Below, piece by piece: positions 7,978 to 58,966 of a stretch of DNA of 64,000 bases. The position numbers were made by a program, and so were the translations under genes. The stretch lies in the NCBI GenBank assembly GCA_964016885.1, contig OZ024743.1, positions 290,718,001 to 290,782,000 on the forward strand, read 5' to 3'. Source of the stretch: Eledone cirrhosa. Taxonomy: Eukaryota. A model generated the notes under the pieces. That model saw only the letters and a program-made list of their open reading frames with translations. It was not told where the DNA came from and did not search any database. Numbering within the stretch: position 1 is the stretch's first letter; each line of letters begins with the position of its first letter.

Positions 7978-8209
7978 TGCATTGAATAATGAATAATTAT
8001 TTCTACTTTAGGCACAAGGCCAGCAATTACTCAGTGCATTACTGGTACTTTATTTTATCGACCCCGTAAGGATGAAAGGCAAAGTCAACCTCGGCGGCAT
8101 TGACTTTGCCTTTCATCCTTACGGGTCGATAAAATAAAGTACCAATAATGCACTGGGTAATTGCTGGCCTTGTGCCTAAAGTAGAAACAATTATTCATTA
8201 TTCAATGCA
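7978..8209. repeat. Fold-back palindrome of two SINE 3' halves
   Basis: 7978-8088 is the near-exact reverse complement of 8100-8209, with an 11-nt loop. Confidence 0.9.
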
Positions 8210-8574
8210 TTGCTTTCAATGAAAGCAAATAAAAAAAAAGCATAAAATCTTGAAAATGAAAATAATCAAACCGTGAATTATGGAATTTAAAGAATAGAAA
8301 GTATAAGTTATAACCTAGAAGTGGGAGAGAGCGGGTGAGAGGGACGGAAATATAGAAAGAGTTTGAGAGATAGAGGGAAAAATCGGGAGGGGGACATAGG
8401 GGGCAGTCAGCTATGCAAGTGGACATCAGAGAACGGATTATGGAGAGAATGAAAATCGAAAGATAGGCAGCGGTGAGAATGGTAAATGCTGTGTGAAACA
8501 CAGAAAGAGGTAATACGTAAAATATAAAGAGAAGGGGAAATGTATATGAAACAGAAATAGAGAAAGAATGAGAA

Positions 8575-15604: not shown

Positions 15605-18490
15605 ACAAAGGAATTGTGGTAAGGAACCAGATGGACCATAACGCACCAGAGTACTCAATACTTAGGGTAGTAGAGTTTCGAAATAGGAAAAAGTATGACC
15701 CCTACGGCAGAGCTCAAGCCGTTTCGACGGTAATTTCTGGACTAAATTTGAATATTTAGCCTGGTGCATGAATAGCCGAACTGGTCAAGGGGGTACTTCC
15801 TTATATGGGAAGATTGTAGTTGTCAAGAGGATTGGTTAAAATTTGTTGTAAACACAAATAAGTCTATCATGGCATTTGGTGGGAGGTAGGAGTGACAGAA
15901 CTTGCCTGTAGAACAATGGGGGTGAGTGGAGCCGGTGAAGCGTTGAAAGTGATATCTATACAGCAGATTCTAAGGATCGTGTATAAAGTGGAGGAGGGAG
16001 GTTATAGAATAGGTAATTCGAATGAGAGAAGGAGACAATAAAAGATAATAGAAATAAATAAAAAAAATATACAGAATTAGATAGTGAGAAATTAATTTTT
16101 AAAAAAATGAGAATGCTATCTTACAATTACAGGTTAATAAGTTGAGAATAAAAAAAAATTGTAGAAATGGAGTAGTAACAAAACTGATACAAAATTAAAG
16201 GGGTCTAACACATCTGCTATAAGTAGTTAGTAAAAAGTATTCGGCCATTCTATCTTAAAATTGCAGAGGTGGGGGAACTGATGCTACAGAGGCCCGATGG
16301 GCTGCATCGGGGTAGGCGAAAGACGAAAAGCAGACTCAGAAGAAAATAGTGGGTGGAAGGAAATGATAGGATGAGACAGGGGGAAGAAGAAGACATAGAG
16401 GAAAATAAAAGAGATACATCTACCTATGTAAGCTGGTGTTTTCCATAAATTATTCGGCAAGTGGGGGGGTATGAGCCGTTGTCCACCCACTGGGGTCGTT
16501 ATGGGGTTTGAGGGCGAAGTAAATCCTATGCAATCTGTGTTTGCACGCGGTTAGCAGTTCGCCTTTCTTGGTTAGGAGTTGGTCCTTCGAAAACAGCATT
16601 TGTAATGTTTCCTCTGAGCATAAATTACACGGACGGGGTCCTCCCGTGTAAGAGTTAGCTCTGGACAGTAAGCTCCAACTGAGATTGTAGGTTATATTAT
16701 TATCTTGGAGGTTATCTGGAGGTTACCCTTAACCTAGAAAATGATCTGTACTACCCATACAGGAAACCAAACGACAACCTGCACTACATCCACCGCCGCT
16801 CTAACCATCCTAGAAATATCACCTATAACCTGGTTAAAAACATCTCCCTCCGCATATCTCGTTTGTCCGCTAATGAGCAGATATTCGACGAACACGCGCC
16901 CCATTACAACCAGGCCCTCAAGCGGAGTGGCTTCCGGGAGGAAATATCCTTTTATCAAGCTTCCCTTAGCGGAACAAGCAAGTTACACCGCAGCTACGCA
17001 ACTATCGTGGTTCAATCCTCCCCATAATGCCCAGGTGGCAACACCTATCGGGAAAATCTTCTTTAGGCTCCTCGAAAAACACCTCCCACTACAACACAGC
17101 TACCACAACATAATCAACAAAAACACCAGCAAACGCTTCTACCGCACCACACCTAACTTCGCACAAAACATCGTCTCCTCAAACAACAAAAAACTCAACC
17201 CTATGGAAGAAACAACCTAGACATCAGGGAGAGCCGAAGTTGTAACTGCCCTGATAGATCTACGTGCCCCCTCAACAACAAATGCCGAGAACGTAACCTG
17301 ATCTACCATTGCAACGTGAGGATGGACACCAACAAAGCTTTATAGGATTAACCGCGTGTGACTTCAAAACCTGGCTCTACCAACACTTTCTGAAACCCGG
17401 TCCGGCGACATGCCACTGCACTTTCGGGCCTCATATGTGACCTTCAAGATAATAATATAACCTACAATCTCACTTGGAGCTTACTGTCCAGAGCTAACTT
17501 TTATACGGGACGACGCCGTCCTTGTAACTTATGCTCGGAGGAAACATTACAAATTCTGTTTTCGAAGGACCAACTCCTAAACAAGAAAAGCGAACTGGTA
17601 ACCGCATGCAAACACAGATTGCGTAGGATTTACCTCACTCTCAAACTCCATAACGACCGGGTGGGTAGACAAGTGCTGATACCCCCCACCCACCCCACAC
17701 ACACACTTGCGAATAAGTTAGGGAAAACCCCAGCTTACATAGGTAGATGTATCTCTTTTCTTTTGCTCTATGTCTTCTTCCCCCTGTCTCATCCTATCAC
17801 CTCCTTCCACCCCTTATGTTCTTCCTCGTCTACTTTTTCCCCCTTCGCCTACCCCGATGCAGCCCATCGGGCCTCTGTAGCATCAGTTCCACCACTCCTG
17901 TAATTTTAAGATAGAATTGGCCGAATACGTTTCACTAACTACTTATAGCAGATGTGTTAGTCCCCTTTAATTTTGTATCAGTTTTGTTACTACTCCATTT
18001 CAACAATTTTTTTCTATTCTCAACCTATTAACCTTTAATTGTAAGATAGCATTGTCATTTCTTTAAAAATTAATTTCTCACTGTCTAATTCTATATATAT
18101 TTTTATTTCTTTCTATTATATTTTATTGTTTCCTACTCTCATTCAAATTACCTATTCTATAACCTCCCTCCTCCATTTCATACACTATCCTTTAGAATCT
18201 GCTGTATGCATATCATTTTCAACGCTTGACCGGCTCCACTAACCCCCCCCCCCCCTTGTTCTACAGGCAAGTTCAGCCACCCCTACCTCCCACCAAATGC
18301 CATGATAGACTTATTTGTGTTTACAACACATTTTAACCAATCCTCTTGACAACTACAATCTTCCCATATAAGGAAGTACCCCCTTGACAAGTTCGGCTAT
18401 TTATGCACCAGGCTAAAAATTCTAATTTAGTCCAGAAATAGACGTCTAAACGGCTTGAGCTCTGCCGTGGGGGTCATAGTTTTTTCCTAT
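15605..18490 (+). mobile_element. 5'-truncated Penelope-like element with an inverted upstream pseudo-LTR
   Basis: Body 16725-17640 encodes YRKPNDNLHYIHRRSNHP, WFNPPHN, CNC..CPLNNKC..NLIY and CNLCSEE..LLNKKSEL..CKH. 15683-16714 is an inverted copy of 17438-18490. Confidence 0.85.
15698..15794 (-). ncRNA. Hammerhead-like motif in the PLE pseudo-LTR (second copy 18378-18474, plus strand)
   Basis: ACCCC(C)-UUGACCA...GAAAC GGC uugagcucu GCC GUA GGGGU. Stems I and III pair well, but the CUGANGA core is altered. Confidence 0.5.
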
Positions 18491-23076: not shown

Positions 23077-23618
23077 GAGGCGTGTTTGCACAATTGCAAT
23101 CGAATCGAATGTTATTATTAATATTCGAAAAACTCAGATTACCTTTATTGTATTCAGCCCAGGTAGAGCGAACATTTTCTCTTATATTTGAATTTGGCAA
23201 AGCCGGCCATTTATCGGTCGTATACAGGAACTGACTGGTCAGTCTGCTGATATGCATATGTAGCTGATCATTGGATCTGCTAATATGCAGATATGACTGA
23301 TCAGCCAGTCTGCTAATATGCAAATCAGACCGATAAGTCACTGTGTATTTTTGAAAATAGAATATATTTTCACTAGCTCTGACAGTTTGGCAGGTGAACT
23401 GTGAGCTGTACTGATGAAGGGTGATGCCCAGAAACGTTAGTGTCTGCAGTTCTGTTTGCATTCCAACACAAGAGCAAGAATGAACGGCTCATTCTACTGA
23501 CACGGATATACAATTGAGGCTTGTTTGCATAATTGCAAACGAATCGAATGTTATTATTGATATTCCAAAAACTCAGATTACATTTATTGTATTCAGCCAT
23601 GTAGAGCGAACATTTTCT
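23077..23618 (+). mobile_element. Non-coding retrozyme-like element, family 1 (1.2-mer of a ~440 bp unit containing an HHR)
   Basis: ~100 bp direct repeats 23077-23180 / 23516-23618; HHR at 23403-23452; second copy at 30212-30713 on the minus strand. Confidence 0.8.
23403..23452 (+). ncRNA. Type I hammerhead ribozyme with intact core
   Basis: Stem I GAGCUGUA/UGCAGUUC; CUGAUGA; stem II GGGU gau GCCC; GAAA; stem III CG uuag UG; cleavage triplet GUC (predicted cut after 23444). Confidence 0.88.
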
Positions 23619-24510: not shown

Positions 24511-25709
24511 TACTAGTATATTAACCCGGCGTTGTTCGGGGTTTGAAATTATGCTAAGAATATACAGCAGAACATTATTTGTCCCCAACCTATCAAAATA
24601 AGCAGAAATCTTCAATAATTAATCCAAACGAAACATCATCATCATCATCGTCGTCGTTTAACGTCCATCGTCCACCAAAGCATGGATTTGGACGAGAATT
24701 TTCCCACTTGACGCAAGATTGGTTGTCTTGCTCGTATGGGACTGTCTGGCGGGTTTTCTACGGCTGGATGCCCTTCCTAACACCAACCACGTTTACAGTG
24801 TGGACTGGCAGGTTTTTACTATGTTACCTACACGGCCACATTACAGCGTCGGCTGTGTGTTTTTTTTTTGTGGTGACACCTACACGACCTCATTTATTTC
24901 GGACTGGATGTTGAGGTACCAACATAACTTTACATCGAAAGGGGTGGTGTGGATGGGGTGGGGATAGTGGGACGGGGGTGTATTTTGGTAAGAGGTGCCT
25001 ACTGACTGTAGGTTTCGCTTTGCACTTAGGCAAGGCGGGTCTTCTGTTTTACTGCGTAGCGCCAAAGATCTCGGTCCAGTGACATTGTCTTGGTTAGGTG
25101 TAAGTGTGTGAGGTCGGAATTTATCAAGTCGTTCCAGGTTTTTCTGGGTCTGCCTACTCCGTGGATGCCGTCTATTGTCATCGCCCTGCACTCTTTTATA
25201 CAGCTGTCTGCTTTCATGCGCATCACGTGACCATACCAACGTAGTCTTCTCTCGAGTAAACAGCATTTGATCCCTCTTATTCCTAATTTCTCACTTAGTT
25301 CATTCATGCTTTGCCGTTCAGGTATATTACTATTACACATCCGAATATTTAGTGCAATCTGTGTACACATAAAACTATGTTGATAATGAAGGAAAACACT
25401 GAACAGGATGTAGTTATACAAATGATTAATAAGGATTATCAATAAAATTGGTTATCTCCCTTTTTCTATAAGGATCGTCAATAAAATTGGTTATCTCCAT
25501 TACATCAATTGTGCTACCTATAATTTTGATATCGATTTTTTATTGCTCAACGTGGGTCAATCGGAAAAAATGTGTGTGATGTGAACATACTAGCGCCCTG
25601 TGCAACGTGCACAGAACATTTGGTCAAATTCGGTTGGTAATTGTAAAAGCCTTAGGTATCCAAAATTGTACACGGACACACACACATCCTCGCTATTATA
25701 TATATAAAG

Positions 25710-25712
<3 letters not shown>
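24511..25712. mobile_element. Non-autonomous Helitron-like element interrupted by an RTE
   Basis: ACTAG plus a CCCGGCGTTGTTCGGG hairpin at one end, and acggacacacacacat..tattatatatataaagat at the other. Confidence 0.4.
24634..25345 (-). mobile_element. RTE-clade LINE 3' fragment with 3' UTR and (TGA)n tail
   Basis: ERRLRWYGHVMRM...GVGRPRKTWNDLI..DRDLWR; the tail reads catcatcatcat on the plus strand. Confidence 0.85.
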
Positions 25713-25764
<52 letters not shown>

Positions 25765-28700
25765 CAGGGAGGAGAAACCGAGAGTAATAAAACTTATCAA
25801 TCCAACTAGTGCAGAACTAACACCCAACCTTTTCAACTTACTCTCTAAAGGTCTTAAATTCACACCGACCCCACTACATCCTAACTACTATGAAATGAAG
25901 GAAGACCTCACAGACTTCTGTAGAAAGTTACGACTCAGTGATGAACTATTCGACCAGTACAATGAGGATGAATCATTAGCCATAAATAGAAGCAATTACA
26001 CCCAATCAAAAGGTAGAAATAAAACCCTGGACGAATTCTGTGAACACATCACAAACTTCCCTTACCAACACTTGCACAGACAAAAACACAAGCCAAACGT
26101 CAACAAGAAAGAATGGGAAGAATTAAATAGATTAAAAACCGACAGAACCATTACAATTAAAGAGGCTGATAAAGGGAGTACAGTAGTCCTAATGGAGACA
26201 GAATTCTATATCAACTTAGCGCTCTCCACTTTGGAAAACGAAACATACTACGAAAAGGCTGAACACTACAATCAACAGAAAATTATGAGAAACCTAAAAA
26301 CTCTGATCAACCAATACAAAGAAGGACTCACTAACAAGGAATTCAGCTTCATCACACACTTCACAAGTAAATCCAGCCTTTTATACGGTATCTCTAAAGT
26401 ACATAAAAGCGAATTAATAAGTAAGGCATGCAAGGAAGCCACAGACATAGTCATCAATGTCCCCTCAACCAATGATCTCAAATTAAGACCTATAATAGCA
26501 GGCCCTGCATGCGAAACCCACCGCCTTAGCAACTTCATGTATACCCTTCTCAAGCCTTTTCTCAAACACATCAACAGCTATATAAGAGACGACCTAGATA
26601 TGCTGAATCACCTCCCTAATATGCCCCTTTCTGAACAAACCCTACTAGTGACTTTCGATGTAGTCAACCTATACTCCAACATCTCCCACAACCTAGGAAT
26701 AGAAGCTATCCAATTATGGCTGGATAATTGAACTCCCACAACGCATCAAAAAATAATTCGTGATAGAGGGACTCAAATTTATCTTGGAGAACAATTACTT
26801 CGTTTTCAATAACAAACACTACAGGCAGAAATCTGGTACCGCTATGGGAACGAAAACAGCACCCACTTATGCTAACCTAGTCATGGGATACCTGGAAATC
26901 ACCCTCTACACTAAAGTCCTAAACAAATTTGGAAACACTCTCCACTTATACATAGAAAGGAACTGGAATCGATATCTAGATGACTGCTACATCCTTTGGC
27001 ACGAAAACATCGAGAAACTTAAAGAATTCCACACCCTTATAAATGGGCTCAACACGAATATTAACTTCACGATGGAATACAGCCATCAACAACTCCCCTT
27101 CCTCGACATCCTCATTAAGATCCATAAGAAAAAATAGAAACAGACATATACTACAAGCCCACAGATTCCAAGCAATATCTTCCTTTCAACTCTTGCCACC
27201 CTAGACACGTTAAAATTAATATTCACTACAACTTAGCCAACAGACTCTGTACTATAGTCTCCAATAAAAACACCTGCTACTTACGGCTACAAGAACTAAA
27301 GGACACACTCATAGGCAGGGACTACCCTGCATCACTAATTGACAATGGAATCCAACGTGACCTAAAACTAAGTACCCAGAACCTTAGACACCCTAAAGTA
27401 AATCAACCGAAACTAAAAGCTCTTCCATACATCTCCACACACAACCCCCTCAACAATGAGGCCTTTGAGACCATCCTCCAGAACATCCCTGTGTTGAAAA
27501 AGGACCATAGAATGAACCAAATCCTACGAACACACGATATCATAAAGAGCAAAAGAAATCTAAGTCAATGAAAAACATCCTAACACATGCCAAAGTACTG
27601 CCAACCACAACAACGAAACCCACAGTAAAAAAAAATGCGATAGACCCAACTGTGGCATATGCATCAACCTAATAGAGGGTTCGGAATTATATTTCAAAGA
27701 AGGAAACGTTTTATAGTAAAACACAATTTCACATGCGCATCGGAAAATCTAATATATGTATTAACTTGCTCAGGTTGTCGAGAACAATACATAGGCCAGA
27801 CCAAACACAGCCTCCGCCAACGCATGACTGTCCATAGATCCCAAATTAAAATACGAGGATACAGGAAATTACCACTGAGTGAACACATTGATACCTGTGC
27901 CGCCCAAGAACATCACAACTTCAGAATCTTTCCCCTCTACAAATTTAAAGATAATGCCACCCAGACACAGCGCATCAGCAAGGAATGTTACTTTATTAAT
28001 AAATATGGACCCCGTCTAAACACATCTCCCTAAGACGAACCCACAACATACACACGTACACATACATACCTACATCAGCATACATCTCTATCCACATATA
28101 AACACAATGACATTCGTAAACACACATGTTCTATGGTGCAACACAAATATACACAAATTTGCTTACCTTTTGATGTCTATAGATATAAACGTGCCGACAC
28201 ACATACATACATAAACGCAAACATGCACTGCACACTGATGGGCACATACATATTTGTACACATGTATTCCAATACGGCAAGGCCTAATGGATTCCCCTTG
28301 CAGTACGTATAATCTGGACACTCACACACACCTTGGTATTATGCCAATACTATATATCATTTCACACCTTTTATTATTGAGGTTGTTGATGTTCTATTGA
28401 GAGAATTTTTTTTACTGAAAATATCGAATAATGTACACCATTTTACCAGTATCACAAAAATAAATACTGGTCCACCCACACACACACACACATATATACA
28501 CACACACACATACACACGCGTACATTAACATACAAAGAGACATACACACACACACACACACACACTTCTCCGTATAAGACAAGAGCTGAAAAATATCTTT
28601 TAACATGTTAACATATCCCCCACACACTTACAGACACATTCCTACTGACCATCCCTCTACCACGAATTTCTCTGCTACACACACACAAACACACACACAC

Positions 28701-32497: not shown

Positions 32498-33280
32498 ATG
32501 AAACCATGGTAGAGGTAATTAAATATGTCTTCTAAGTTTATTTTACACCTAATTGTGTTTAGTTGACTGTATATCTGGTCGATTTCTACATGCTGTAGGT
32601 TATTTTGCTAATTGGGAGAGGAAATGGTATATATTATATCTAGTGATTCTAAAGACATGTTGTATGATATATAGCTCTGATTATTTAATTTATTAATTCT
32701 TCATTGAGCCACAACGTGACCCGTTGCAAAACACATATATATCTATGACTCTATATATATGTAAACCCTTATATGTAATAATCTCCTGTTAGTTTGAGAT
32801 ACAATTTGGGTATTATGGGCTGGGCTTTCTAGCAATAAGCCTACCCGCCGTAAGCAACTAATCTCATCCTTTCTAACTTGACCGCTGCCACGTCACGATT
32901 CTTAGCCATTTTTGAATGTATTCTTGGCGCGATTACTTTGGAAAATTAATTGTCTAATTTTGAGCTCACTCCTGATGAATCCGAAGCTCTGGACATTCCT
33001 GTTATCGGATGTCTTAAAATACGGATGAAACCATGGTAGAGGTAATTAAATATGTACGCATTTCTTTTAAGTTTATTCTACACCTAATCGTGTTTAGTTG
33101 ACTGTATATCTGGTCGATTTCTACATGCTGTCGAAATGTTCGATAAACACTCCATCGTAGCCGTCGCGAAGGGGCTGCTTTCAGTTATTTGTCGGAGATT
33201 CCTGCATAGGAGACTTTATTTTTATAGCTTGGTCTAATTGATTTTTTATATGGTTAATTATGCTAATTGGGAGAGGAATA
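32498..33280 (+). mobile_element. Retrozyme-like element, family 2 (partial tandem, period ~527 bp)
   Basis: 32498-32596 is repeated at 33025-33130, and tgctaattgggagagga recurs; HHR at 32968-33043. Confidence 0.72.
32968..33043 (+). ncRNA. Type I hammerhead ribozyme with a palindromic minimal stem III
   Basis: ACUC-CUGAUGA-AUCCG..(GACAUUC/GGAUGUC)..CGGAU-GAAA-CCAUGG-UA-GAGGU. Confidence 0.8.
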
Positions 33281-33429
33281 CGACGAGTGTGTTTAACTCT
33301 AATGCACTGAAGTATTTTTATCTTATATATATATATATATATATATTTGTGTATAGTGGTAGCTATGGTGCTCCCGTAGGTGGTATGCCAAAATTAGCAC
33401 TCGATATTCATCAGAGTAGAGTGTATATA

Positions 33430-33603
33430 TTATCAAGAAAACGAAAAATCAGTGATGCATCTGGACGTGTCTGAAAGAACCGGCAGAAGTAGAATCAGCC
33501 AGATCCATACAAGGACCATGACTCGAGCTACATGCCGGCGAAACGTTTGTAACACGAAATAAACTAAGTCCAGATGCATCACTGATTTTCCGTTTTCTTG
33601 ATA

Positions 33604-33604
<1 letters not shown>
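33430..33604 (+). mobile_element. 175-bp inverted-repeat element enclosing a hammerhead (33466-33556)
   Basis: 37-bp inverted repeats 33430-33466 / 33568-33604. CGUGU-CUGAAAGA-a-CCGGCA..UGCCGG-c-GAAAC guuu GUA-ACACG, followed by AATAAA. Confidence 0.8.
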
Positions 33605-33646
<42 letters not shown>

Positions 33647-44740: not shown

Positions 44741-46779
44741 GAGTCTCAGTCATTGATGTTATTTAACTGGAATGTTTGTTGAAATGAATATCAAGTCGCT
44801 ACCTGCAGCCTTAGATATTCAGGACGTATCGGAGGGTTCTTGCTGTTCCCAGCAAGCATGCCTTTTGAAGTGTTCCAAAAGAACATGGCTTGACTAATCT
44901 ACTTTAACCGTCCTCGGAAACTCCTTGAGATAGTACCTAGTTCTCCTATGACAATCGGGACAACCTTGATCTAATGGCAGTTCCAAATCCTTTTTAACTC
45001 CCACTTTAAATCCTGGTATCGGTTAATTCTCCTTCAGTACAATTTTAAGCATTGGCTCTGTACTGTCAGACACATGTTTGTGCAGATTCTTTTTCTCCAT
45101 CTGAACACAGTTCTCTATGCTGATAAGACCTCTTCCACCTTCAGATCTCTTTAAGTAGAGTCTATCAACATCACTCCTCTTGTGGAACCTGTTGTAGATA
45201 GTCATTAGCTTCCTAGTCTCCCTAGCCATTTCTTTTTGTTCAGTAACATTCCATTTCAGAATTCCCGCACTGTACCTAATAATAGACACAGCTCGGGTAT
45301 TTACTGTACTTATCACATACCTACTATTTAGTTGTGATTTTAGTATGCCCCTTATTCTCCTTATGTATACAGATCTCATTAATTCCTTCAATGTTTTGTT
45401 CTTGATGTCATCTGCCTCCAGAACACCTAAATATCTGTATCCATCTCCAGTGTCAATTTCCTTTATCATCTCACCTGTTGGTACCAGGATTCCGTTTCTT
45501 CTGCTCAATTTACCCCTCCTCATCACTAGGACTCCACACTTATTAATACCAAATTCTATACATATGTCAGTGCTGAAAATACCGACAGTGTCAACAAATA
45601 CATCCAACTCCTCACTCTTCCCAAAGAGTTTAAGATCGTCCATGAAGAGGAGGTGGTTGATGGTAAGATCTCCTCTTGCCAGCTTGTATCCTGCTCTCAC
45701 TTTTTGCCATATGAGGGACAAGGGTATGAAGGTAAGGACAAACAGCAAAGGGGACAAACTATCTCCCTGGAAGATATCTCTCTTGATCTTCACGTTTCCC
45801 AAGGATTCTCCACCTGATGTTGGCTCTGTTTGCCAGGACTTCATACTTTTACTTAATAGCTGTCTGATTTTTTCTGCCTCCTTGAAGATATCTATTCTAT
45901 TGGTTATCTTTGTACCATGTCGAATGTCTTTTTGTAATCTATCCATCCCATGGCAAGACCAGTATGCCTCCTCTTGCAATTCCTCATTAGCATCTTATCA
46001 ATAACTAACTGGTCTTTTATACCACGGGACTTCTTTCTTTTCGTCCGGTAACAAGTTGTTTATGCGGAAGTAATAGTAGATTTCCTCAGACACAATGCTT
46101 GTTAACAGTTTCTACATTACGGATAGCCATGTGATTGGCCTATAGGTGGTAACCTCATTACCCTTGCTTCAGTATTTCATTACCAGAACTGTTGTACCTT
46201 TTGTTAACCACTCTGGTACTTCACCCGACATGGCTTTGAGTTTTGGGTAGAGGGATGTTATATTTGTTATCCAATAACTTTGCACACCATCTGGGCCTGG
46301 TGATTTCCAGTTGGTTAGTTTTTTGGCCTGCCCTTTAAGAGTTTCAACTGTGATACTCAAATAATATTGTTGGTGTGTTTGTTCACTAATCTCCTTTTGA
46401 ACTGCCTCAATCCATACTACCTGAGTATTAATTTCAACATCCTGCTCCCATATTCCTCTCTAGAATGTCTTAGTCTGTTCCGCCTCAAGGATCACGTCGT
46501 TACCTCTTTATTTCCCTTCAAGCTGTTCAAACAACATCTGTTTTTTGTCAAACACGCGGTTCTGTCTATACTGACTAACTCTGTTCTCATACCGCCTAAT
46601 CTTTGCACATTTTGCTACAATGCGTTGCTTCAGTTCCTCTATGATAACATTTAGCTATTTTCCCTTAGTTTTGTAATTTATTTTCAATCTATCTTTATTG
46701 TCTATGTTCAGTAAAGACTCAAGCTTTCCAATAACTTTTCTCATTTCCATGATTTGACAATTAATTCGTTTCTTCAACC
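44741..46779 (-). mobile_element. R4/Dong LINE, copy B, 5'-truncated with an internal deletion
   Basis: ORF 45023..45979 has [11 protein letters not shown] and [11 protein letters not shown]. The 3' end matches 48925-49215; (TTA)n on both flanks. Confidence 0.88.
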
Positions 46780-46804
46780 TTATTATTATCATTATTATTA
46801 TTAA

Positions 46805-47010
46805 AGGGCGGGGAATTGGCATTATCGGTAGAATGTTGGACGCCATGATTTCTAGCATAGTTACGTCACATTACGGTTTGCGTTCAAATCACGTCGAGGT
46901 TAACTTTGGCTTACATCATTACGGGGTCGATAAAATAAAGTACCAGTAATGTACTGATAATTGCTGGCCTTGTGCCAAAGTAGAAACAATTATTATTATT
47001 ATTATTATTA
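46805..47010 (+). mobile_element. Full-length tRNA-derived SINE
   Basis: Same family as 41537-41730; ends in (ATT)n. Confidence 0.8.
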
Positions 47011-47012
47011 TT

Positions 47013-47742
47013 TGAGGAGCTTTCCCAGTTCGGGATAAACTCTACAGGCACGGAAGTGCCGTCAGCCGGGCATTTCCGAGATGCTTGCAGGGCGACGATA
47101 CCATTCTGCATGCACTCGTCCAGTGTCCGAGCATTGCTGACTTGTGGGTTTATGTCGAACACCTGCTGTCGCGTGTAGAACGGATCAGGCTATCAGCTGA
47201 GTCCATCTTGAGAATTGCCCCGCCCTCTTCCATTCGCCGTGAAGAGCAGGCAGTTTTTATCTGTCTGGTGGCCATGGCGAAAGAGAAATTAGGGTGGACG
47301 CGTCTGAAAGTACTGAAGACGAGCACTAACCTCTTCGGTGATGCCCTGAATAACTTTTTTCAAATTTCATTTGAAAAGGAAAATCAGGGTAAGAGGAAAG
47401 TGCTCTCTTCACAGCATTTTGTTGAAATATGGGTGAGTTAGGCAAGAATGGCCCGAGTGAATGGACCTACTCTGAGTATATGCCTGTAAATTGAAGGTGG
47501 AACACTGGGAGAGGGCATTTGCCGGGTGGTCAGTGTCACCGTGGCTTTTTTTTAATGAGCTTTCTCCACGATGGCCCTCGGAAGACTCCCACATATTGGG
47601 GAATTTTTAATTGTTCTTTTTTGGTTACATCCTCTGTTTTTTTGTTTTTTTACACGCAGAAATGCCCATTTGTACCGTACTGTATTGTCTTGCACTGTCC
47701 TTAATGTCTACTTTGTGTAAACCATTGTGGTTAATAAAGAAA
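47013..47742 (+). mobile_element. Tx1-like LINE 3' fragment
   Basis: C-terminal zinc knuckle (RCLQGDDTILHALVQCP), 3' UTR and AATAAA. Confidence 0.82.
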
Positions 47743-48920
47743 GCGTGGAGGACTGGGCATGCCATGGCTGATCACTGGTGTTTCATTGACGGTGAACAGG
47801 TGTGGTCGCCGTTCGCCAGGCACGTTTTCCTACAGCTCGTTTCCTTGACGGAACTGCAGTCCTGGGTCAGGAAAAGACCGATGGATAACGCTTGGAAACT
47901 AGAATGTCTCCAGGCGCTCACCGCCCACTGCCAGCTGGGTACCACTATCGGTGGAACATCTACCTCGGTGTTCTATAGAGGACTAGTGGACGGGAAGGGC
48001 TACGACGTACTCAGAGAGATCCTGGGCGTCGAAGAAGATCAGCTGTTCGCTCTCTTCCGGAGAACTTTCAGCCCAGGGCCGATGTATAACTTCCAAAAAT
48101 CCCTTGCCTGGCAGTGTTACCGGGGAGCGTTGCCAGTTCGAAGTTCGAGATAAGCTCTACAGGCACGGAAGTGCCGCCAGCCGAGACTGTCCGATATGCA
48201 CGCAGAGCGACGAAACCATCGTGCACGCATTCATTCAGTGCCCGAGCATTGCTGACTTGTGGAGCTATATCGAACAGTTGGTGCCGCGTGTAGGACTGAT
48301 CCGGTTAACGACTGAGTCCATTGTGCAGATGGTCTCGTCGTCTTCCTTCGAGGATGGAGGGCAGGCAGTTTTCATCTGCTTAGTGGCCATGGCGAAAGAG
48401 ATTGTGTGGTTGACAAGGTTGAAAGGGTTAAAGACAGACACTTTCCTCTTCGGCGAATCCCTAATTAGCTTTTTCAAGTTTCACATGAAGAGAAAAATCA
48501 GGGAGGAGAGGCAAGTGCTGTCGTCTAGCAAGTTTGTTGAAAGGTGGGTGAATGTAGCAAGAATGGTCCGAGTGAACGGGGCCGCTATGAATATACGACT
48601 GCAGTTTGAGAAATGGAAAAATTGAGAGAGGGCGCTTGCCCTCGTGGTCAGAGTGGCCGTGGTCTTCTGTGTGGTTTTCGTCCCGAGTAACCCTCGGATG
48701 TTTCCAACCTATTAGATAATTTTTCATTGTTTCAATTTTCATTTTCATTGTTTATATATATATGTGTCTATGTCTTTTATTTTCATTTCTTTTATATATA
48801 ATAAAAGTCTTTACATGCACAAAACCAACATCGTAAGGTCCAGTACCGTCCTGTGCCGTCTCTAATTTTTTTCTTGATGTCAGCCCTTGTGGCCAATAAA
48901 TAAATTAATATTATTATTAT
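47743..48920 (+). mobile_element. Tx1-like LINE 3' fragment
   Basis: DGEQVWSPF..., CPICTQSDETIVHAFIQCP; 3' UTR ending gcccttgtggccaataaa..(TTA)n. Confidence 0.85.
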
Positions 48921-51900
48921 TGTTCTTTGAGTCTCAGTCATTGTTGTTAGTTAACTGGAAAGTTTGTTGAAATGAATATCAAGCCACTACCTGCAACCTC
49001 AGATATTCAGGACGTATCGGAGGGTTCTTGCTGTTCCCAGCAAGCATGCATTTTGAAGTGTTCCAAAAAGCGGGGTGGGGCCAATTTTCTTTAACCATCC
49101 CTGGAAACATTTTGAGATAGTACCTAGTGCGCCTATGACAATCGGACCACTTTGACTTCATGGCAGTTCCAAATCCTTTTAGCTCCCACTTTAAGTCCTG
49201 GTATCGGTTAATTTTCTCCCTCACCTTCTTACGCACTCTCGTGTCGAATGGGCAGGCGACATCCACAATCAGGCACGATCTTTTTTTCTTGTCCAAAACC
49301 ACCAGGTCAGGTCTATTGTGTTCCAGTTTCTTCACCTGATCGTTTTCTATCACAGACTCTGGATTATGCTCATACCACTTCTCAGAATGTGGTAAATTGT
49401 TTACTTTCCATAGGGGCCAGTGGATCGCCCTGCCCATCACATCATGTCCCTATCCTTTATAGTGAGTCTGGGCTAGGTGTTTACACTCGGATACAATGTG
49501 AGCCACAATCTCCTCTCTCTCTCCACAGATCCTGCACAGTGGGCTAGCCTCCTCCTAGTAAATATGGTATTTCAGCCACTTCGTTTTGAGGGCCTGCTCT
49601 TGCGCAGCCATTAGCATTCCTTTTGTAGCCTGTTTAAGGTCTCCTCTTTTCAACCAGTTCCATATCTGTGGATCTCTGAATTCAGTTTTCTCAAAGAACG
49701 TACTATGAAGGGATTTTTCATGAAGTTTGCTCTTTCTCCTCGTTGTTATTTCCTCCTTGGACATCTCCTGGTCTATTGTCCTCTCCTTCAGTACAATTCT
49801 GAGCATTGGCTCCTTACTATCAGTCACGTATTTGTGTAGGTTGTTTTTCTCCATCTGATCACAGTCCTCTATGCTCATAAGACCTCTTCCACCTTCAGAT
49901 CTCCTTAAGTAAAGTCTATCGACATCACTCCTCTTGTGGAACATGTTGTAGATAGTTAATAGCTTCCTAGTCTTCCTATCCATTTCTTTTTGTTCAGAAA
50001 CATTCCATCTCAGAATTCCCGCACAGTACTTAATAATAGACACAGCTCGGGAATTTACTGCACTTATGGCATTCCTACTGTTCAGGTGTGACTTTAATAC
50101 GCTCCTTACTCTCCTAATGTATTCAGATCTTATCAATTCCTTCATATTTTTGTTCTTGATGTCATCAGCCTCCAGAACACCCAAATACATGTATCCTTCT
50201 TCAGTGTCAATTTCCTTTATCATCTCACCTGTTGATATCTGGATTCCGTTGCTTCTGCTCAATTTACCCCTCTTCATCACAAGGACTCCAGACTTACTGA
50301 TACCAAATTGCATACATATATCATTGCTGAACATACGGACAGTGTCAACAAGCACATCTAACTCCTTCTCACTCTTCCCGAAGAGCTTAATTTCTTCCAC
50401 GAAGAGGAGGTGATTGATGGTAAGCTCTCTCTTTCCCAACATGTATCCTGCTCTCACATTTCGCAGTATAATGGTCAGGATAATCAGTGCAAGGACAAAC
50501 AACAGAGGGGACAGACTATCTTCCTGGAAGATACCTATCTTGATCTTCACGCCTCCCAAGGATTCTCCAGGTGATGTTATCTCTGTTTTCCAGGACTTCA
50601 TACTTTTGCTCAACAACTGTCTGATGTTATCTGCCCCCTTGAAGATCTCTAGGCTTTTGGTGATCCAAGAATGAGGCACCATGTCAAATGCCTTTTTTTA
50701 GTCTATCCATCCCATGGCAAGACCAGTGTGTCTCTTCTTGCAATTGCTCATTACCATCTTATCAATAAGTAACTGGTCCTTTGTACCACGGGTCTTCTTT
50801 CGGCATCCTTATGTTCGTCCGGTAACAAGTTGTTTGTTTTGAGTTGATGGTAGATTTCCTCAGACACAATGCTTGTCAACAGTTTCCACATTACGGACAG
50901 ACATGTGATAGCTCAATAGTTGGAAACATCATTACCCTTGATTCGGTCTTTCATTACGAGAACTGTGGTACCTTGTGTCAACCACTCTGGTACCTCACCT
51001 GACATCAAGCAGTCATTGAACATGGTTGTCAGTTTCGGGTGGAGGGATGTTATCATTTTAATCCAATACATCTGCACACCATCTGGGCCTGGTGATTTCC
51101 AGTTGGTTAGTTTGTTGGCCTGCCCTTTAAGAGTTTCAACTTTGATACTCAAATCAGTTTGTTGGTGTGCCTGTTCACTGATCTCCTGTTGTACTGTCTC
51201 AATCCACACTGCCTGGTTATTATGTTTAAAATCCTGCTCCCATATTCCTCTCCAGAATGTCTTAGTTTGTTCCGCCTCAGGTATCAAGTCGTTCCCTCTT
51301 TCTTTCCCTTCAAGCTGTCCAAACAACATCTTCTGGTTGTTGTCAAACATACGGTTCTGTCTATACTGTCTGACTCTACTCTCGTATCGCCTAATTTTTG
51401 CACTCTTTGCTACAATGCGTTGCTTCAGTTCCTCTATGATAATATTTAGCTTTTTCCTCCTAGTTTTGTACTTTATTGCCAGTCTATTTTAAGTGTCTAT
51501 GTTTTTTAGTGTCCCTTTCAGTAGGGACTTATCATGTCATTTCTCATTTCCAATGAGATTTCCAATGTCATTTCTCATTTCCCTGATTTGACCATTCAGT
51601 CGTTTCTTCCACCAAGGTTCTGATCTTTCTTGTTTGTTGTTTCCTCTCGCTTTTATGCCAAGTAATTTCTTCACCGCATTTGCTGTTGCTTTAAGGATAT
51701 TGTTGCACTGGTGAAGGCTCCTCGCCTCAAGGTATGGGATGACTTTGTTTACCTTAGCTGTTGTTTCTTTTAACTTTTTCCTGTCTACAAATCTTAGGTT
51801 CATAGGTTTCCCACTATCATTGTTCATTTCATCTACCACTAAGTTTAGGATATCAACCAAATCTTGTCGTAGCCCGTCAGCATTCATCTCCTCAATGGCC

Positions 51901-53058
51901 ATATCTTTGTTCCAGGTATTATTTATTTCAGCATTCAGATCATTGTCTGCTTCGGATGGTTCCTCCGTTCTCTCAACCTCTTCACCTTCATTTCCCACTG
52001 GCTTGTTTGCCTGGCATACTCCACACTCCATTTCCAACATAATCTCTCTGCTCAGTTCGTCCAGTTCCAGCTCGCTTATCCACCCATTAGTTCTTATTAC
52101 CCGAGCCTACCCGGCCAATTTTTGTTCATCTAATTTAAATAGACCAATCTCTGTCCAGATGTTATGCATCCGTTTCCTATAGCCTTTCTCCTTGGGGTTA
52201 CTTTCAGGTAACATTGCATAACAGCTCTATTAATTTCTTTCGTCCAGTTGGTTCCGGTCCCTTTCCTTTTTCCTCTTCATCCAACACCAGCAATATTTGG
52301 ATGACAGCCATGTCCCTGCTGCTGAGCCAGGGAGCACCTGCTCGGTGAGAGTCTGTCACATGACATTCCAGTCTCCACTTCACCGTTATTCGAACTGTTT
52401 AGATTCGACATTTAAACACTCTTAACGAGGATTGGTGAATGTATGGTTACATAAACACCGGTGATTTTAGTGTGGCACTATCACGCTGTAGACGAACATA
52501 AATAAACAAACAAACAAATAGGTAACCCCCCTCCCCCCCCCAAAAAAAAAGAAATAAGCATAAGTTTCATTGTAATGTAATGTTTGAATGTCTGACTTAG
52601 TTTTTTGTTTCCTTGTCTGTCTGTCTGTTTGTTTTTCTTTTCTTTTTTTTCTTTACGTTTTTCGTTACTGCTGTGCTGTTTTGATGTTGATTTTTGGTTT
52701 TTGATTTTTTGACCGGTCTTCAAATCAGTCTATTTATATGGGAATACTACGATGCCTGTCTTAGGAGGTAGTGGGAGAGAATAGCGGCGGTAGCGATAAT
52801 GAGGCAGTGGTACTGTGCTAGTAGTACTTAGCAGGAGGTAGTGGGAGAGAATAGCGGCGGTAGCAATAATGAGGCAGTGGTCATGTGATCGTAGTACTGT
52901 AGTGATGATGTTTAAGTTGAAGTAGAAATAGAAGGTGAGGTAACTTGACTAGGGTTTTGGGCGTGGTAGTGGTGTTGGTGGTGGTTTTGGTGGTGAAATG
53001 ATTTGCCTGTCTGTCCACTTAGTCATTTTTCTCTTTTTCTAATTTTTTATTTTTATTC
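48921..53058 (-). mobile_element. R4/Dong LINE, copy C, near full length (N-terminus, RT, CCHC, REL endonuclease), disrupted
   Basis: ORFs 51537..52040, 50913..51350 and 49555..50682 (catalytic MDD degenerated to VEE). CRIC..HIVSEC zinc knuckle at ~49495-49540. RPDLVVLDK..LIVDVACP restriction-like endonuclease in 48979..49440. Confidence 0.92.
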
Positions 53059-53264: not shown

Positions 53265-55257
53265 ATGGCTGAGCCACGCCCCCAGCGATATGACGGCTGT
53301 CGTGCGACAACGACGTAGAAGTTGAGAGGAGCGCTACAGCGAAATTAACACACATTGATAACACAAACACGACCACAAACAAGGTAAACAAAGACACCAA
53401 TGATACCAATGAGAACTCTAACTTTGAAAAAAATGACAGTAACAGCGACAACGAAAATACAGATAACAAAAAAAATATAACAAATACAACAACAATATCA
53501 ACACCACTAACATGAAAACAAATAGCGACAACACCAACAGCAACAATACCAACTGCACCGAGAACAACGGTGGCAACAAAGACAACAATGATAACAGCGA
53601 CAGTGCTAACAACAACACCAACAAGAACAACGTCAACAACACCCCCAACGAAAGCAAGACCACTTTCGCTGCGGCAGCAGCAAAAAAGAGGCCATGCTTC
53701 AACATGGACCTCTCAAACAAAGATGAAATGTTGGCCCACACATGGAAGCTCATCAAGCAAGAGCAAACTTGGGCCAACTTAACTGTCCCGGTAGAAGCTA
53801 TTGAGGCAGTGGAGCGCAAAACGGTGCATTATAGATGCATCTCAGCACAAACTAAAAGGGCAGCTTTAATCCCACAAGAAGATGTCGAAGTCGCGCTGAG
53901 GTGCATCAGAGAAGACACCCAGTACATAGAGAGGGGCAGACAGTACGGCACCATTTCGGTGTTGTTCAAGTCAGACGCCCTCGCTATGAAACACGCTATG
54001 ACTCCTTGCAAAACCAGCAAGGTCATAATGTACTCCTCCCACATGGGAAAAATAACGGACCGTCTCTGCATTCCCAGAATCCCACCAGGACTTGACATGT
54101 GGTGGTTTCTGGGATGTGTGTTTGTGGAGGGGACAGATACAGTCCCTATAGAAGTGACCAGAAAGGCTAGAGAGGTCTGGTCCGGAGTTGACCTGGAGAT
54201 ACTTCTCCAGATCAGGCCCGAGAATGTGAAGACAATCCCAGACCACATCCGCCTTCAGAATGGGACTGTCATTCACATTATGACCGAAGGCAAAAGGCCG
54301 CAGTGTTTTGTTTGTGGGGAAAAACCCATTTGCGAGCCTTCTGACTCAACTGCTGAAAGAGGCAAGGGGTCGAAAGGCTCCACGGCTGTCGACGCCGGGA
54401 CGGGGACCACAACTAACACCTGCACCGGCAAAACCAGCAACAAGAATACCAATAGAAAGACCACCACCAACATTGACCACCCAGGGGGGAAACGAGGAAA
54501 GCTGTCAAATTCCCCCTCCCCCAAAAATACACACACCAATAAAACCTTAAACATACATACAGACACACTTACAGACATAGACCCCTCATCTACCAGTAGC
54601 GAAAATGGGGGAAATCCCAATTCCCCCAAAATACAAAAAAGGAAACACAAAAAGAAAAAAAAAAAATCAACAAAGCACAAAAGCACCCACAATAAAAAAC
54701 GCAGACACCACCCACGCAAACATCTCTCCAATAACACCAATATCAACACCACCATCACCATCACCAGAATCCCCCAAACGCAAACAACCGAAACAGACGC
54801 AAGAACAAATATACACACAAACATCTGAAGCCACAGACATCGCACTCACAACAAACACAGATACAACCGAAACAACACCACCAAAACCATCACCACCACA
54901 ACCACGCCAACAAATAAAATCACACCAACAAAACATACAAAACTTCGTGCTCGTCAGGAGGGCCAACAAGGAACTGATAGCCCTCGTTGCACGAAGTGAA
55001 AATATACAAAAAGAGTGGAAATGTTTAAATCGAGCACATTTCGCGTGCCGGAAGATTTGGTTCTGGTGCGAATGTCGCTCGACATATTCAAAGAAATACG
55101 AGACAGCTTTCCACGGGACGTGGGAACCCCGAACGTAAAACCCACTTCAAGACTTTTAAAGGGGTTCCCAAAAGAAACCACACTAACTATGGAGGTCGAA
55201 CAACCGGACCTTCGCAAGAGCCGGAAGGTAAGTAAACCTTCCTCTCTCTCTGTTTAA
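53265..55257 (+). pseudogene. Tx1 ORF1 (gag-like, zinc knuckle), frameshifted
   Basis: 438-aa ORF with TFAAAA and EGKRPQCFVCG; homologous to 59183-61276. Confidence 0.75.
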
Positions 55258-55266
55258 CCTGCAAAC

Positions 55267-58200
55267 ATGGCCGTATTAAGAGTAGGATTTTTAAATGTTC
55301 GAGGCCTGGGATCGTCCTGGAGGCAGGGCCACCTGCTCAACGACCTCAGGTCTATAGAATTGGATGTAATTGCAGTCAGCTAGACCAGGATTTACGACAC
55401 GCGCGCACTAGCCCCCATTTTCGACGACTATCAGATATTTGCGTCTGTTAGCCGGCCGGGAATGGGAGGCGGGGTGGCAGTGCTGTTTAGGAAAGGCCTG
55501 GATCTCGAGGTAAGGTCGATCTTCCGGGACCCGGACGGGAAGTTGGTGGTCCTGGTCGTGAACAATAATGAAGGTGGTGCCTTTAGACTGGTGGCCGTCT
55601 ATGCTCCTACTGGGGCAGGACGGCCGAACTTCTTTAGACGCCTGGAAGCCTTTCTGGGTACGTCTCGCACTTTACTGTTAGCGGGAGACTGGAACGGCAT
55701 CTTAGACGCACGTTGGGACTGTGTGGGAGTATCCGATAGGAGCGGGGGGTGCAAAAGCTTCAAGAATCTGATCAGCCAGTTCCAACTGTCTGACAGGTAC
55801 CGACTAGATTTCCCTAATGCGCTAGTGTGGACCTGGGCTAACCGCATAGGGTCATCTAGATCGTATATAGACAGGATATTCATTGGGAAAATATACAAAA
55901 ATAGTGTAAGCTGTCCACGTTTTGAAACGGTCGCCTATTCAGATCACAAGTTGTGATCTGTATGGTCGACCTAGATAAGACGCGTAGGTTAGGACCTCGT
56001 TACTGGAAGTTAAACATGTAATTTCCGGCACGTAAGGCTTACAGGGACCAGATCAACAATTTTGTTAAGAAAAAGTTAACAGGGGGAGTCGTCAACAATA
56101 GATGGTGGGGGGGCTCTCAAAAGAGAGATTAGAGTAATGTCGATAGAGTTTAGCAAAGGAGTAGCATTAGAGAAAAATATAAAGGAGGGGGAGTTGGTAG
56201 ATAAGTTAGACGAGGCTATTGGTAGTGGCATTGCAACTGATGTGCTAGCGGCGAGAATGGCATTAGACTATTTCCTCAATGCGAAACACAAAGGTTATAT
56301 TGTCAGAGCTAAGGCGCGTGCTCTGAGAAACGAGGGAACCAAAGCTGTTCGATGGGCCCGCATTGCAGAGGCGCAGCGTGGTAATAAAACCACGATTCGG
56401 TCTTTGACGGACCAAGACGGGCACGAGCTGAGCGATTCCAAGAGGATGTGTGAGACCTTTCGCCAACATTTTGCTCGGTTGTTCGGGGGAAGTGGCGGGT
56501 GAGAGATTATGCGGCCTTCAGTCCCTAACTCGATGGCTTGCCGCAACTCTCGACGGCTGACGCTGGGCGCTGCGAAAGGCCAATTACTTCAGCCGAGATT
56601 CAGGATGCCCTTGTTGGCTGCATGAGGCGCAAGTCACCCGGTTTGGATGGTCTGCCCTACGAGCTTTACGCAAATATGCCAGACTTGTTCTCCAATCTCC
56701 TCGAAGCCCTCTACTGCAACTGGCAGCAAAACGGGAGTATTCCCAGTTCTGTGAGCCGGGGCGTAGTGACTCTGATAAGGAAAAATGAGAACAAGAGGGA
56801 CACATTAGACAATTTCAGGCCCATAACTCTGCTCAACAAAGAGTTTAAGATTTTGGCCAGGGTGTTAGCGAAGATGTTGGCGCTTGTCGTCGGGGATTTG
56901 GTTGGGGAGGCGCAAACTTGCGCAATCCCAACCAGGTCCATACACGACAACCTCCACCTAATGCGATACATCATAGATAGGGTAGTGTGTAAACCTGGCT
57001 TCGGTGGGGCTCTGATCAATTTAGATCAATCAAAAGCATTCGATAGTGTCGACCATCGCTACCTGGAGGCTGTCCTCAAGGCGGCTGGCTTCGGCCCCGT
57101 CTTCATAAGCTGGATCGCTGCAATGCACAGCGGCACCTGCTGGATGGTCAAAGTTAATGGCCACCTCTCGGAACCGTTTCAGATCTCCCGATCGTACCGT
57201 CACGGGTGCCCTCTCTCCTCCCTTCTGTACGTATTGACTCTCGAGCCTTTACTGCGGAAGCTGGAGCTGTTGCAGGGCATCCCGCTCGAACCGGGATGCG
57301 GAAAGGCTGTGTCGGCTTATGCGGACGACATCACCGCGATGGTGTCGGACACCTCAGAAATCGAGGTGGTCGGCATCTTATTGGAGGAATATGAAAGGTT
57401 GACGGGAGCAAAACTTAACCCGGAAAAGTCAGTAGGCTTGCAACTCGGCACCTGGAGAGGCAAGTCGTTAGGCGCTGGACGGACGGACCGGTAAAGTTGC
57501 TAGGGGTTTGGTTCGAGCCAGACCTCCAGGTGGATAAGAATTGGGACGAGGTAACGGGCAGGGTAGTCAGTCTCACCCAGAAATGGGCTGGGATGAAGCT
57601 ATCACTGAAAGGTGGGGCGGAGGTGGCGAACGCGTACATCGCGTCCGTCATCTACTACCGTCTGACTGTTGTCCCATGCCCCCATACGCGCCTCGCCATC
57701 TTGGAGCGGCTCCTCTCCAAATTCTTGTGGAGGTGTCAGCTTCCGATATGAGGCGCTCCATCTGCTGCAAGCACCCTCTACGTGAAGGGCTGAGCATGCC
57801 GTGGCTAATAATGCGCAGGCACGCGCTGAGGCTGCGGCATCTCCAGATATTCTGCCTAAACGGTGAACAGGTGTGGTCGCCATTTGTCAGACGGACCTTT
57901 CCGCAGGTCGTTTCTTTGACTGAGTTGCATCCTGGGTCAAGAAGAGACCGAGACTGGGTGACTGACATCTGGAATGTTTCCAGGCACTCACTGCCCTCTA
58001 CCAGGCGGGCAATGCGGTCAGTGGAACTTCCACTCTCGAGTTCTATAGAGGATTAGTGGTGGGAAAGTGCGACGAATCACTCGGAGAGACTCTGGTAGTC
58101 AACGAAGTCGAACTAACCAGTCTGTACCGGAGGACTTTCGAGCCGGGGACGATGGATAATTTCCAAAAAAATCCCTCGCTTGGCAGTGCTACCTAGGGGC

Positions 58201-58677
58201 ACTGCCGGTTCGGGATAAACTCTACAGGCACGGAAGTGCTGTCAGACGGCCCTGCCCGAGATGTGCGCAGAGCGACGAAACCGTTCTACACGCACTCGTC
58301 CATTGTCCGTGCATTACTGACTTGTGGAGTTATGTTGAACAGCTGTTGTCGCGTGTAGAACGGATCCGGCTATCAGCCGCGTCCATAGTGAAGATCGACC
58401 CGCCGCCTTCTTTCGGCCAGGAAGGGCAGGCAATTTTCCTCTGTCTGGTGGCAGTAGCGAAAGAGGTTGTATGGTGGACGAGGCTGAAAGGACTGAAGAC
58501 AGACCCTTTTCTCTTCGGCCAATCCCTCATCAACTTTTTCAAGTTTTACTTGGAAAGGAGGGTGAGGGTGGAGAGAGCTGTGCTCCCCCCCCCCCCCGCA
58601 GTACATTTGCTGAAAGGTGGGTGAATGTAGCGAGAATCGCTCGTGTGAGTGGGCCTACTCTGGTCATGCGGCTGTAG
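55267..58677 (+). pseudogene. Tx1 ORF2 (APE-RT-CCHC) with stops and frameshifts
   Basis: Fragments 55462..55956, 56137..56502, 56538..57494 and 58322..58624. Confidence 0.88.
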
Positions 58678-58966
58678 GTAGGTAAATTTGAAGAGGAGAG
58701 GGGTGCCCATCCAGGCTGGTCTCGAAGCGTGGGGTCGTTCAGGACTGGTGGGGTACCTGAGCGAACCCTAGGTGTTCATCCCCCTATTGGGGAATTTTTT
58801 CTTGTAATTTTCTTGTTACTTTATTGTTACTTTGTTATTGTTACTTTGTTTATTCATATTGTTTACTCGATTTTTCTGTAAAACCCCACTGTCACAGTCT
58901 TTTGTATTGTCCCCTATATGTCAGCCCTTGTGGCCAATAAATGAAATCATTATTATTATTATTATT

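Follow-up and report, generated by a model that had tools for sequence, protein, structure and literature searches.

The hairpin locus and its surroundings

Within the 64,000-nucleotide stretch of Eledone cirrhosa DNA analysed here (the window), a short hairpin lies in a (TA)n tract, with a hammerhead ribozyme (HHR) motif and an AATAAA in its loop (Table 1). An earlier note, made from the letters alone, had described this as a 175-bp hairpin resembling a DNA MITE and had suggested that it may instead be a minimal product of a Penelope-like element (PLE). The near-perfect 37-bp inverted repeat on which that description was built is real, with 36 of 37 bases identical between its two halves and a longer alignment of 43 nt at 95%, and in fold predictions of the 175-mer against shuffled sequences (z = -12.6) none of 200 shuffles was equally stable. 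The HHR motif, of type I by sequence, and the AATAAA are likewise where they had been placed. The boundaries, however, had to be redrawn: the left arm extends a further 83 nt, which correspond to the family's tail in reverse complement, with the TA flank lying beyond them, so that a one-sided tail had been overlooked and the insertion is longer than the 175-bp unit. When the ends were checked for a target-site duplication, both were seen to merge into (TA)n, and sequencing contigs from three runs of one sample (possibly the assembly's own) contained neither an empty site nor a piece spanning the locus.

Table 1. Features of the insertion, in positions of the window
Feature	Position	Strand	Remarks
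Left (TA)n target flank	33323..33346	.	
Whole insertion	33347..33604	.	258 nt; each end merges into TA repeats over a few bases
Inverted tail	33347..33429	-	~84 nt, downstream of the pseudo-LTR (pLTR) in the full-length copy
Short arm	33430..33466	-	inverted last 37 nt of the pLTR
RGACGTGY motif	33463..33470	+	overlaps HHR stem I; first G from the short arm
Junction microhomology GAC	33464..33466	.	3 nt, common to both arms
Long arm	33464..33604	+	tail-less 3' part of the pLTR, 141 nt
Type I minimal HHR motif	33466..33556	+	sequence-predicted; predicted cut after 33551
HHR core CTGAAAGA	33471..33478	+	a single extra A (A6a type), family-wide
AATAAA	33558..33563	+	
Right half of the 37-bp inverted repeat	33568..33604	+	pLTR 3' end
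Right (TA)n target flank	33605..33646	.	

Other features of the window were noted as well. A second, different HHR motif (32966-33044, plus strand), with a canonical CTGATGA core, a CCATGG palindrome at stem III and a GTA site, abuts the same (TA)n tract as the left end of the hairpin; it is partly repeated at 32498-32623, a high depth of sequencing contigs marks it as a repeat, and it is probably another PLE end. A third, compact motif with a canonical core and a 6-bp stem I lies at 23405-23450 (plus strand). We take the ORF remnants at 25580-26731 and 16738-17903 (both on the plus strand) to resemble the RT and endonuclease regions of PLEs from other families, and those at 769-2344, 45023-52106 and 53467-63567, with endonuclease- and RT-like frames, to be remnants of non-LTR retrotransposons.

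The parent family and its hammerhead motif

The right-end 24-mer of the hairpin, which is also the 3' end of the family, has 1002 exact matches in the genome, and of 1444 candidates in a genome search the 40 that were scored yielded 111 matches. One copy of 6.1 kb (L032; G000:C2) opens with a pLTR and the 84-nt tail, continues through a broken ORF into a long 3' UTR and closes with another pLTR, the two pLTRs flanking the ORF as direct repeats (2403-2820 and 8109-8516) that are 94% alike. The earlier note had raised the possibility of a PLE ending in the hairpin's sequence, and L032 is such an element at full length. The hairpin is a pseudo-LTR tip plus an inverted copy, derived from a PLE of a (TA)n-targeting family. 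A sister family (L165-L176 and L237-L266), with 68 exact matches of its 19-mer, is 71% identical at the pLTR and has a tail of ~75 nt.

The ORFs of the family (L079 and L075), although broken, can be aligned with seven homologs chosen from the 24 found, and they display RT-like motifs (ITMGS and YRDD), a Cys-rich linker, which reads CNC-x5-CP-x4-C in L075 and the homologs, and YIG motifs. Pfam and PDB sequence searches with the family's own ORFs returned no RT or GIY-YIG match; a GIY-YIG match below the cut-off appeared in one homolog, and precomputed annotation places PF26215 on 14 of the 24 homologs. The homologs that are named come from cephalopods. Between the RT thumb and the linker the family ORF carries long low-complexity inserts that exceed those of the aligned homologs (L032:4380-4850 and 5000-5320; also in L077 and L079) and resemble the N-rich inserts described in rotifer PLEs (PMC3846280). 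A Cys-rich linker between the RT and the endonuclease is reported as a trait of the Neptune and Nematis clades of PLEs (PMC8557442). The linker of the present family fits those clades. As a lead taken from the linker, the family may be of Neptune type.

The HHR motif in the loop is made up of stem I (CGTGT/ACACG), the core CTGAAAGA, CCGGCA/TGCCGG and GAAAC-GTTT-GTA, after which the AATAAA follows; an Rfam scan of the hairpin gave no match to an HHR family and eight matches at chance level. The extra A noticed earlier in the core proved to be family-wide, 199 of 210 arms having an A in this column, and it occurs in both the older and the younger subfamily. The form CTGAAAGA, which departs from the canonical CUGANGA core, is present in 147 of 163 younger-type arms; the core of the sister family, whose copies were selected by pattern, is the canonical CTGAGGA. 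As to the stems, the 5-bp stem I, the perfect 6-bp stem II and the palindrome seen in the window are there, but the latter two are not conserved features: a G at the stem II mismatch position occurs in 7 of 210 arms and a G in loop III in 4 of 210, making the perfect stem II of the window and its CGTTTG loop, with the AAACGUUU palindrome, rare variants. Between the older subfamily and the sister family stem II differs by two compensatory pair swaps, and both have CAATTG as the stem III palindrome; the younger subfamily, which reads CATTTG there and whose stem II is shorter, has lost the palindrome.

As far as the published account goes (PMC4209133), the motif is like the minimal type I HHRs of metazoan PLEs in its location in the pLTR, its 5-bp stem I, long stem II and tiny palindromic stem III, and in the unpaired base after A9 that is typical of them; it departs from them in the extra A (A6a), in A-C replacing G10.1-C11.1 and in the palindrome lost from the younger subfamily. 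The extra A is not new to nature, an insertion after A6 having been reported as a natural HHR variant with low activity (PMC3088659). Stem I is predicted to form at 1-4% in the whole hairpin and at 90-99% in the loop alone, by energy models that are poor on HHR cores. Dual HHR motifs on opposite strands, 100-700 bp apart, are described for metazoan PLEs (PMC4209133); a CTGATGA inside the tail was considered as a second HHR here and rejected, as it has no GAAA partner on either strand. Judged from its sequence, the HHR of the hairpin is a passenger of the pLTR and probably a weak one, being of the A6a type, single-copy and disfavoured at stem I within the hairpin. That the family has spread with a core variant reported to be of low activity accords with the idea that PLEs can insert without HHR cleavage.

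Head-to-head pairs, the single tail and the ends of the arms

Arms of the family were mapped on L032:2403-2904, the positions of which are given as q coordinates, using a sample of loci composed of the best BLAST matches, contig C1 loci found by the pLTR 24-mer and loci found by the tail motif. Arms short of q395 were dropped, which left 317 arms in 188 regions, a few of which duplicate one another. On this scale the window copy (L001) has a minus arm of q377-502 and a plus arm of q273-413. In the first set the 3' ends cluster at two positions, q418 (90/220) and q502 (81/220), both of which grade into TA, and poly(A) was found at the ends of none of the 317 arms.

The most regular property of the 99 close head-to-head pairs is that exactly one of the two arms carries the tail: this holds for 92, with two tails in one pair, none in two and partial ends in four. 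The same was seen in the set collected without regard to the tail, that is, the loci found by the pLTR 24-mer (where 32 of the 35 close pairs have one tail; p = 1.7e-7 under independence of the ends), and in the sister family (10 of 11, the remaining pair having a partial tail, also on one arm only). Of the 92 one-tail pairs, 30 carry it on the longer arm, 40, as in the window, on the shorter arm and 22 on one of two equal arms; the idea that tailed and tail-less arms are systematically different pLTR types was rejected, there being no fixed direction. TA repeats flank both sides in 82 of the 99 pairs. Counting against double priming, 29 of 77 unbiased regions have a single arm within the DNA fetched.

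The length of the inverted repeat, on which the choice between a MITE and a PLE product partly turned in the earlier note, is variable. Close pairs span 71-753 nt and fall into 86 junction classes, while sibling insertions reach 7.3 kb, the long inverted ones enclosing PLE body. By approximate BLAST ends, 33 of the 99 junctions overlap by at least 2 bases, 28 have 0-1 base and 38 have inserted bases. Since pairs range from 71 nt to 7.3 kb, the longer ones with PLE body and 20 of the 99 close pairs like the window copy in having the whole HHR between short arms, the window hairpin is a point on a continuum and not a unit. A unit that spreads by itself, either as a DNA-transposon MITE or as a hairpin RNA copied whole, would account for the appearance of the insertion, with its 37-bp terminal repeats in TA, for the 20 close pairs similarly laid out around a whole HHR and for the recurrence of some junction classes up to six times. 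Yet the 24-mer across the window junction has a single match, itself, in 3.0 Gb with one mismatch allowed, the recurrent classes among the 86 sit at the pile-up of arm ends described below or at a 7-nt microhomology, and the long inverted versions contain PLE body and no transposase. We therefore regard such a unit as extremely improbable for the family, and for the window copy it is ruled out, because its junction occurs once in the genome. The two observations that the earlier note had named as speaking against its reading came out the other way, the HHR core being kept among the copies and the long inverted versions containing PLE body where a transposase-coding parent had been the alternative; together with the variable repeat length, the PLE ending in this sequence and the unique junction, its suggestion of a PLE product that looks like a MITE has held up.

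Two junctions may be mentioned for themselves. Four pairs at different loci (L008, L009, L010 and L225) have a nearly identical junction (q244-245 with q387) at the 7-nt microhomology CAGTGAT, and either the same joint arose more than once or a single hairpin was copied; the junction microhomology of L002 is CGTGT, the HHR stem I repeat itself.

The 5' ends of the arms are also concentrated. Of 93 unbiased ends, 33 fall at q243-248, where adjacent 6-nt bins hold 0-5, and 11 of 31 ends of the sister family lie at the homologous place. The site reads CCCCAGT, and 27 nt after its A stands AGACGTGT, which matches RGACGTGY, the downstream promoter element reported for Penelope (PMC2377424). In the sister family AGACGTGT is found in 36 of 42 arms, its last 4-5 letters having formed part of the search patterns, and the +28 spacing to RGACGTGY is retained in most copies. 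From this spacing and the pile-up we infer that the site marks a transcription start, with an Inr-like CAGT and RGACGTGY at +28. Two counts go against this: the motif is intact at its two variable bases in only 52 of 160 younger-type arms, and most arms of the window's family have ACCCGTG or AGCCGTG with the same stop place. A cap-derived G before the A was considered and is not convincing (7 of the 20 non-C bases there), and the HHR cut site was rejected as a point of truncation, with arm ends there in 6 of 132 cases (p = 0.47). Long arms that reach upstream of the stop, which include the 5' pLTRs of full copies, number 35 with and 35 without the tail.

The pile-up could instead represent a stop of the RT at an RNA structure, or a splice acceptor (CCCCAG|), in place of an RNA start, in which case the stump would still be doubly primed. 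The site does read CCCCAG in both families, Penelope has an intron in the corresponding region (PMC2377424), and the cap-derived G is, as noted, unclear; against this, no common upstream exon is joined to the arm ends, the AG itself is kept at many of them and the spacing of the sister copies is maintained, and we consider this explanation quite improbable. The near-universal single tail and the common stop spot make it likely that copying proceeds from two fixed starts toward the beginning of the RNA.

Origin of the paired arms and known systems

A published proposal for head-to-head palindromes of PLEs is fold-back (PMC3846280), by which a single cDNA, or antisense RNA, folds over at a microhomology and serves as its own template, after which the endonuclease trims one arm at the border of the tail. 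Arms of one pair are indeed more alike (96.0%, against 93.1% in shuffled pairs; 38 pairs), as fold-back too predicts, 20 of 30 pairs have the same two bases in both arms at a variable site, where 30% would be expected by chance, and 17 rare variants are common to both arms. On the other hand, a tail on the short arm, as in the window and in 40 of 92 pairs, is unobtainable by folding a long tail-less arm; 205 rare variants are unshared, though these are possibly later mutations; and 4 of the 30 pairs differ at both adjacent bases (CC versus GA), three of them with both arms at the pile-up. These four pairs suggest two templates, since a later change of both neighbouring bases into the other common type is improbable, with ectopic conversion as the alternative. 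On balance fold-back appears unlikely to us as the source of the hairpin, although less so than an RT stop or splicing as the source of the pile-up.

In our view the hairpin is probably a head-to-head stump, present as a single copy, of a PLE that targets (TA)n, produced in one insertion in which both target strands primed and the cDNAs were joined through GAC. Both strands of a cut (TA)n tract would prime reverse transcription, starting from the tail's end (q502) in one case and from the pLTR's end (q418) in the other, and the cDNAs would extend toward the 5' end of the RNA, many of them simply running off it. In the window they would have halted early, after ~120 and 141 nt, before being joined through the common GAC, as those of siblings may have been by microhomology or a few added bases; long arms would need longer templates reading through the AATAAA. 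The long arm of the window ends short of the putative start site, which lies 28 nt further upstream in the family, and because this site is absent the stump is probably inert. More tentatively, and with rather less confidence than we give to double priming itself, the priming may be obligately asymmetric: a dimeric RT-endonuclease would start at the tail site for one target strand but at the pLTR-end site for its partner, may carry two RNAs and would leave run-off copies of the first 170-260 nt of the mRNA.

Biochemical precedent comes from PAc (Poseidon of Anolis), whose protein in vitro cuts and extends both target strands and starts at two internal sites bounding the tail, with HHR cleavage not required (PMC11167929). 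The present family is like PAc in its two putative internal starts around the tail, its AT-rich target and the presumed extension of both strands, and in PAc insertion proceeds with no need for the HHR; the starts differ in position, both lying ahead of the ATG at q543 here, in what is probably 5' UTR, and inside the ORF in PAc. The PAc account, in its available part, gives no strand difference in the start site and leaves a one-of-each rule unexplained (PMC11167929).

The layout as such is not novel. Complex insertions of EN+ PLEs with an inverted, 5'-truncated pLTR and a one-sided tail are already published (PMC8557442, PMC3846280, PMC2377424), and the hairpin shares with them the inverted truncated copy beside a direct one, the variable repeat length, the tail at one end, the microsatellite target and the microhomology at the 5' junction. 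It differs in having no ORF and in its tail, ~84 nt in this family and ~75 nt in its sister against the 30-40 nt described (PMC8557442, PMC3846280); a count also stands behind the one-tail rule here, where those papers, in the parts available, say "often" or "optionally". Non-LTR retrozymes (bioRxiv 10.64898/2026.07.22.740005) are similarly non-coding and PLE-derived with a type I HHR, but as described there they are head-to-tail tandem units, whereas the hairpin has a single HHR and represents one head-to-head event. Searches of openly accessible main texts, which also covered the confusion of MITEs with PLEs, twin priming in Penelope and HHRs of cephalopod PLEs, listed no paper giving a one-tail count or mapping stops to a start site.

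The hairpin is an ordinary object, one among hundreds of such remnants; it also warns that programs for calling MITEs will misassign the ends of PLEs. What is added here is the count behind the one-tail rule, the long tail and the signs that arms sometimes come from different templates. The data from the family bear on the open point of how PLE ends come to be inverted and to have a one-sided tail, and the one-of-each rule, the fixed stop and the few pairs of mixed template yield three predictions that can be tested in the published in vitro PLE system. If obligately asymmetric priming is true, genomic stumps would map the promoter of the element and record a two-RNA intermediate.
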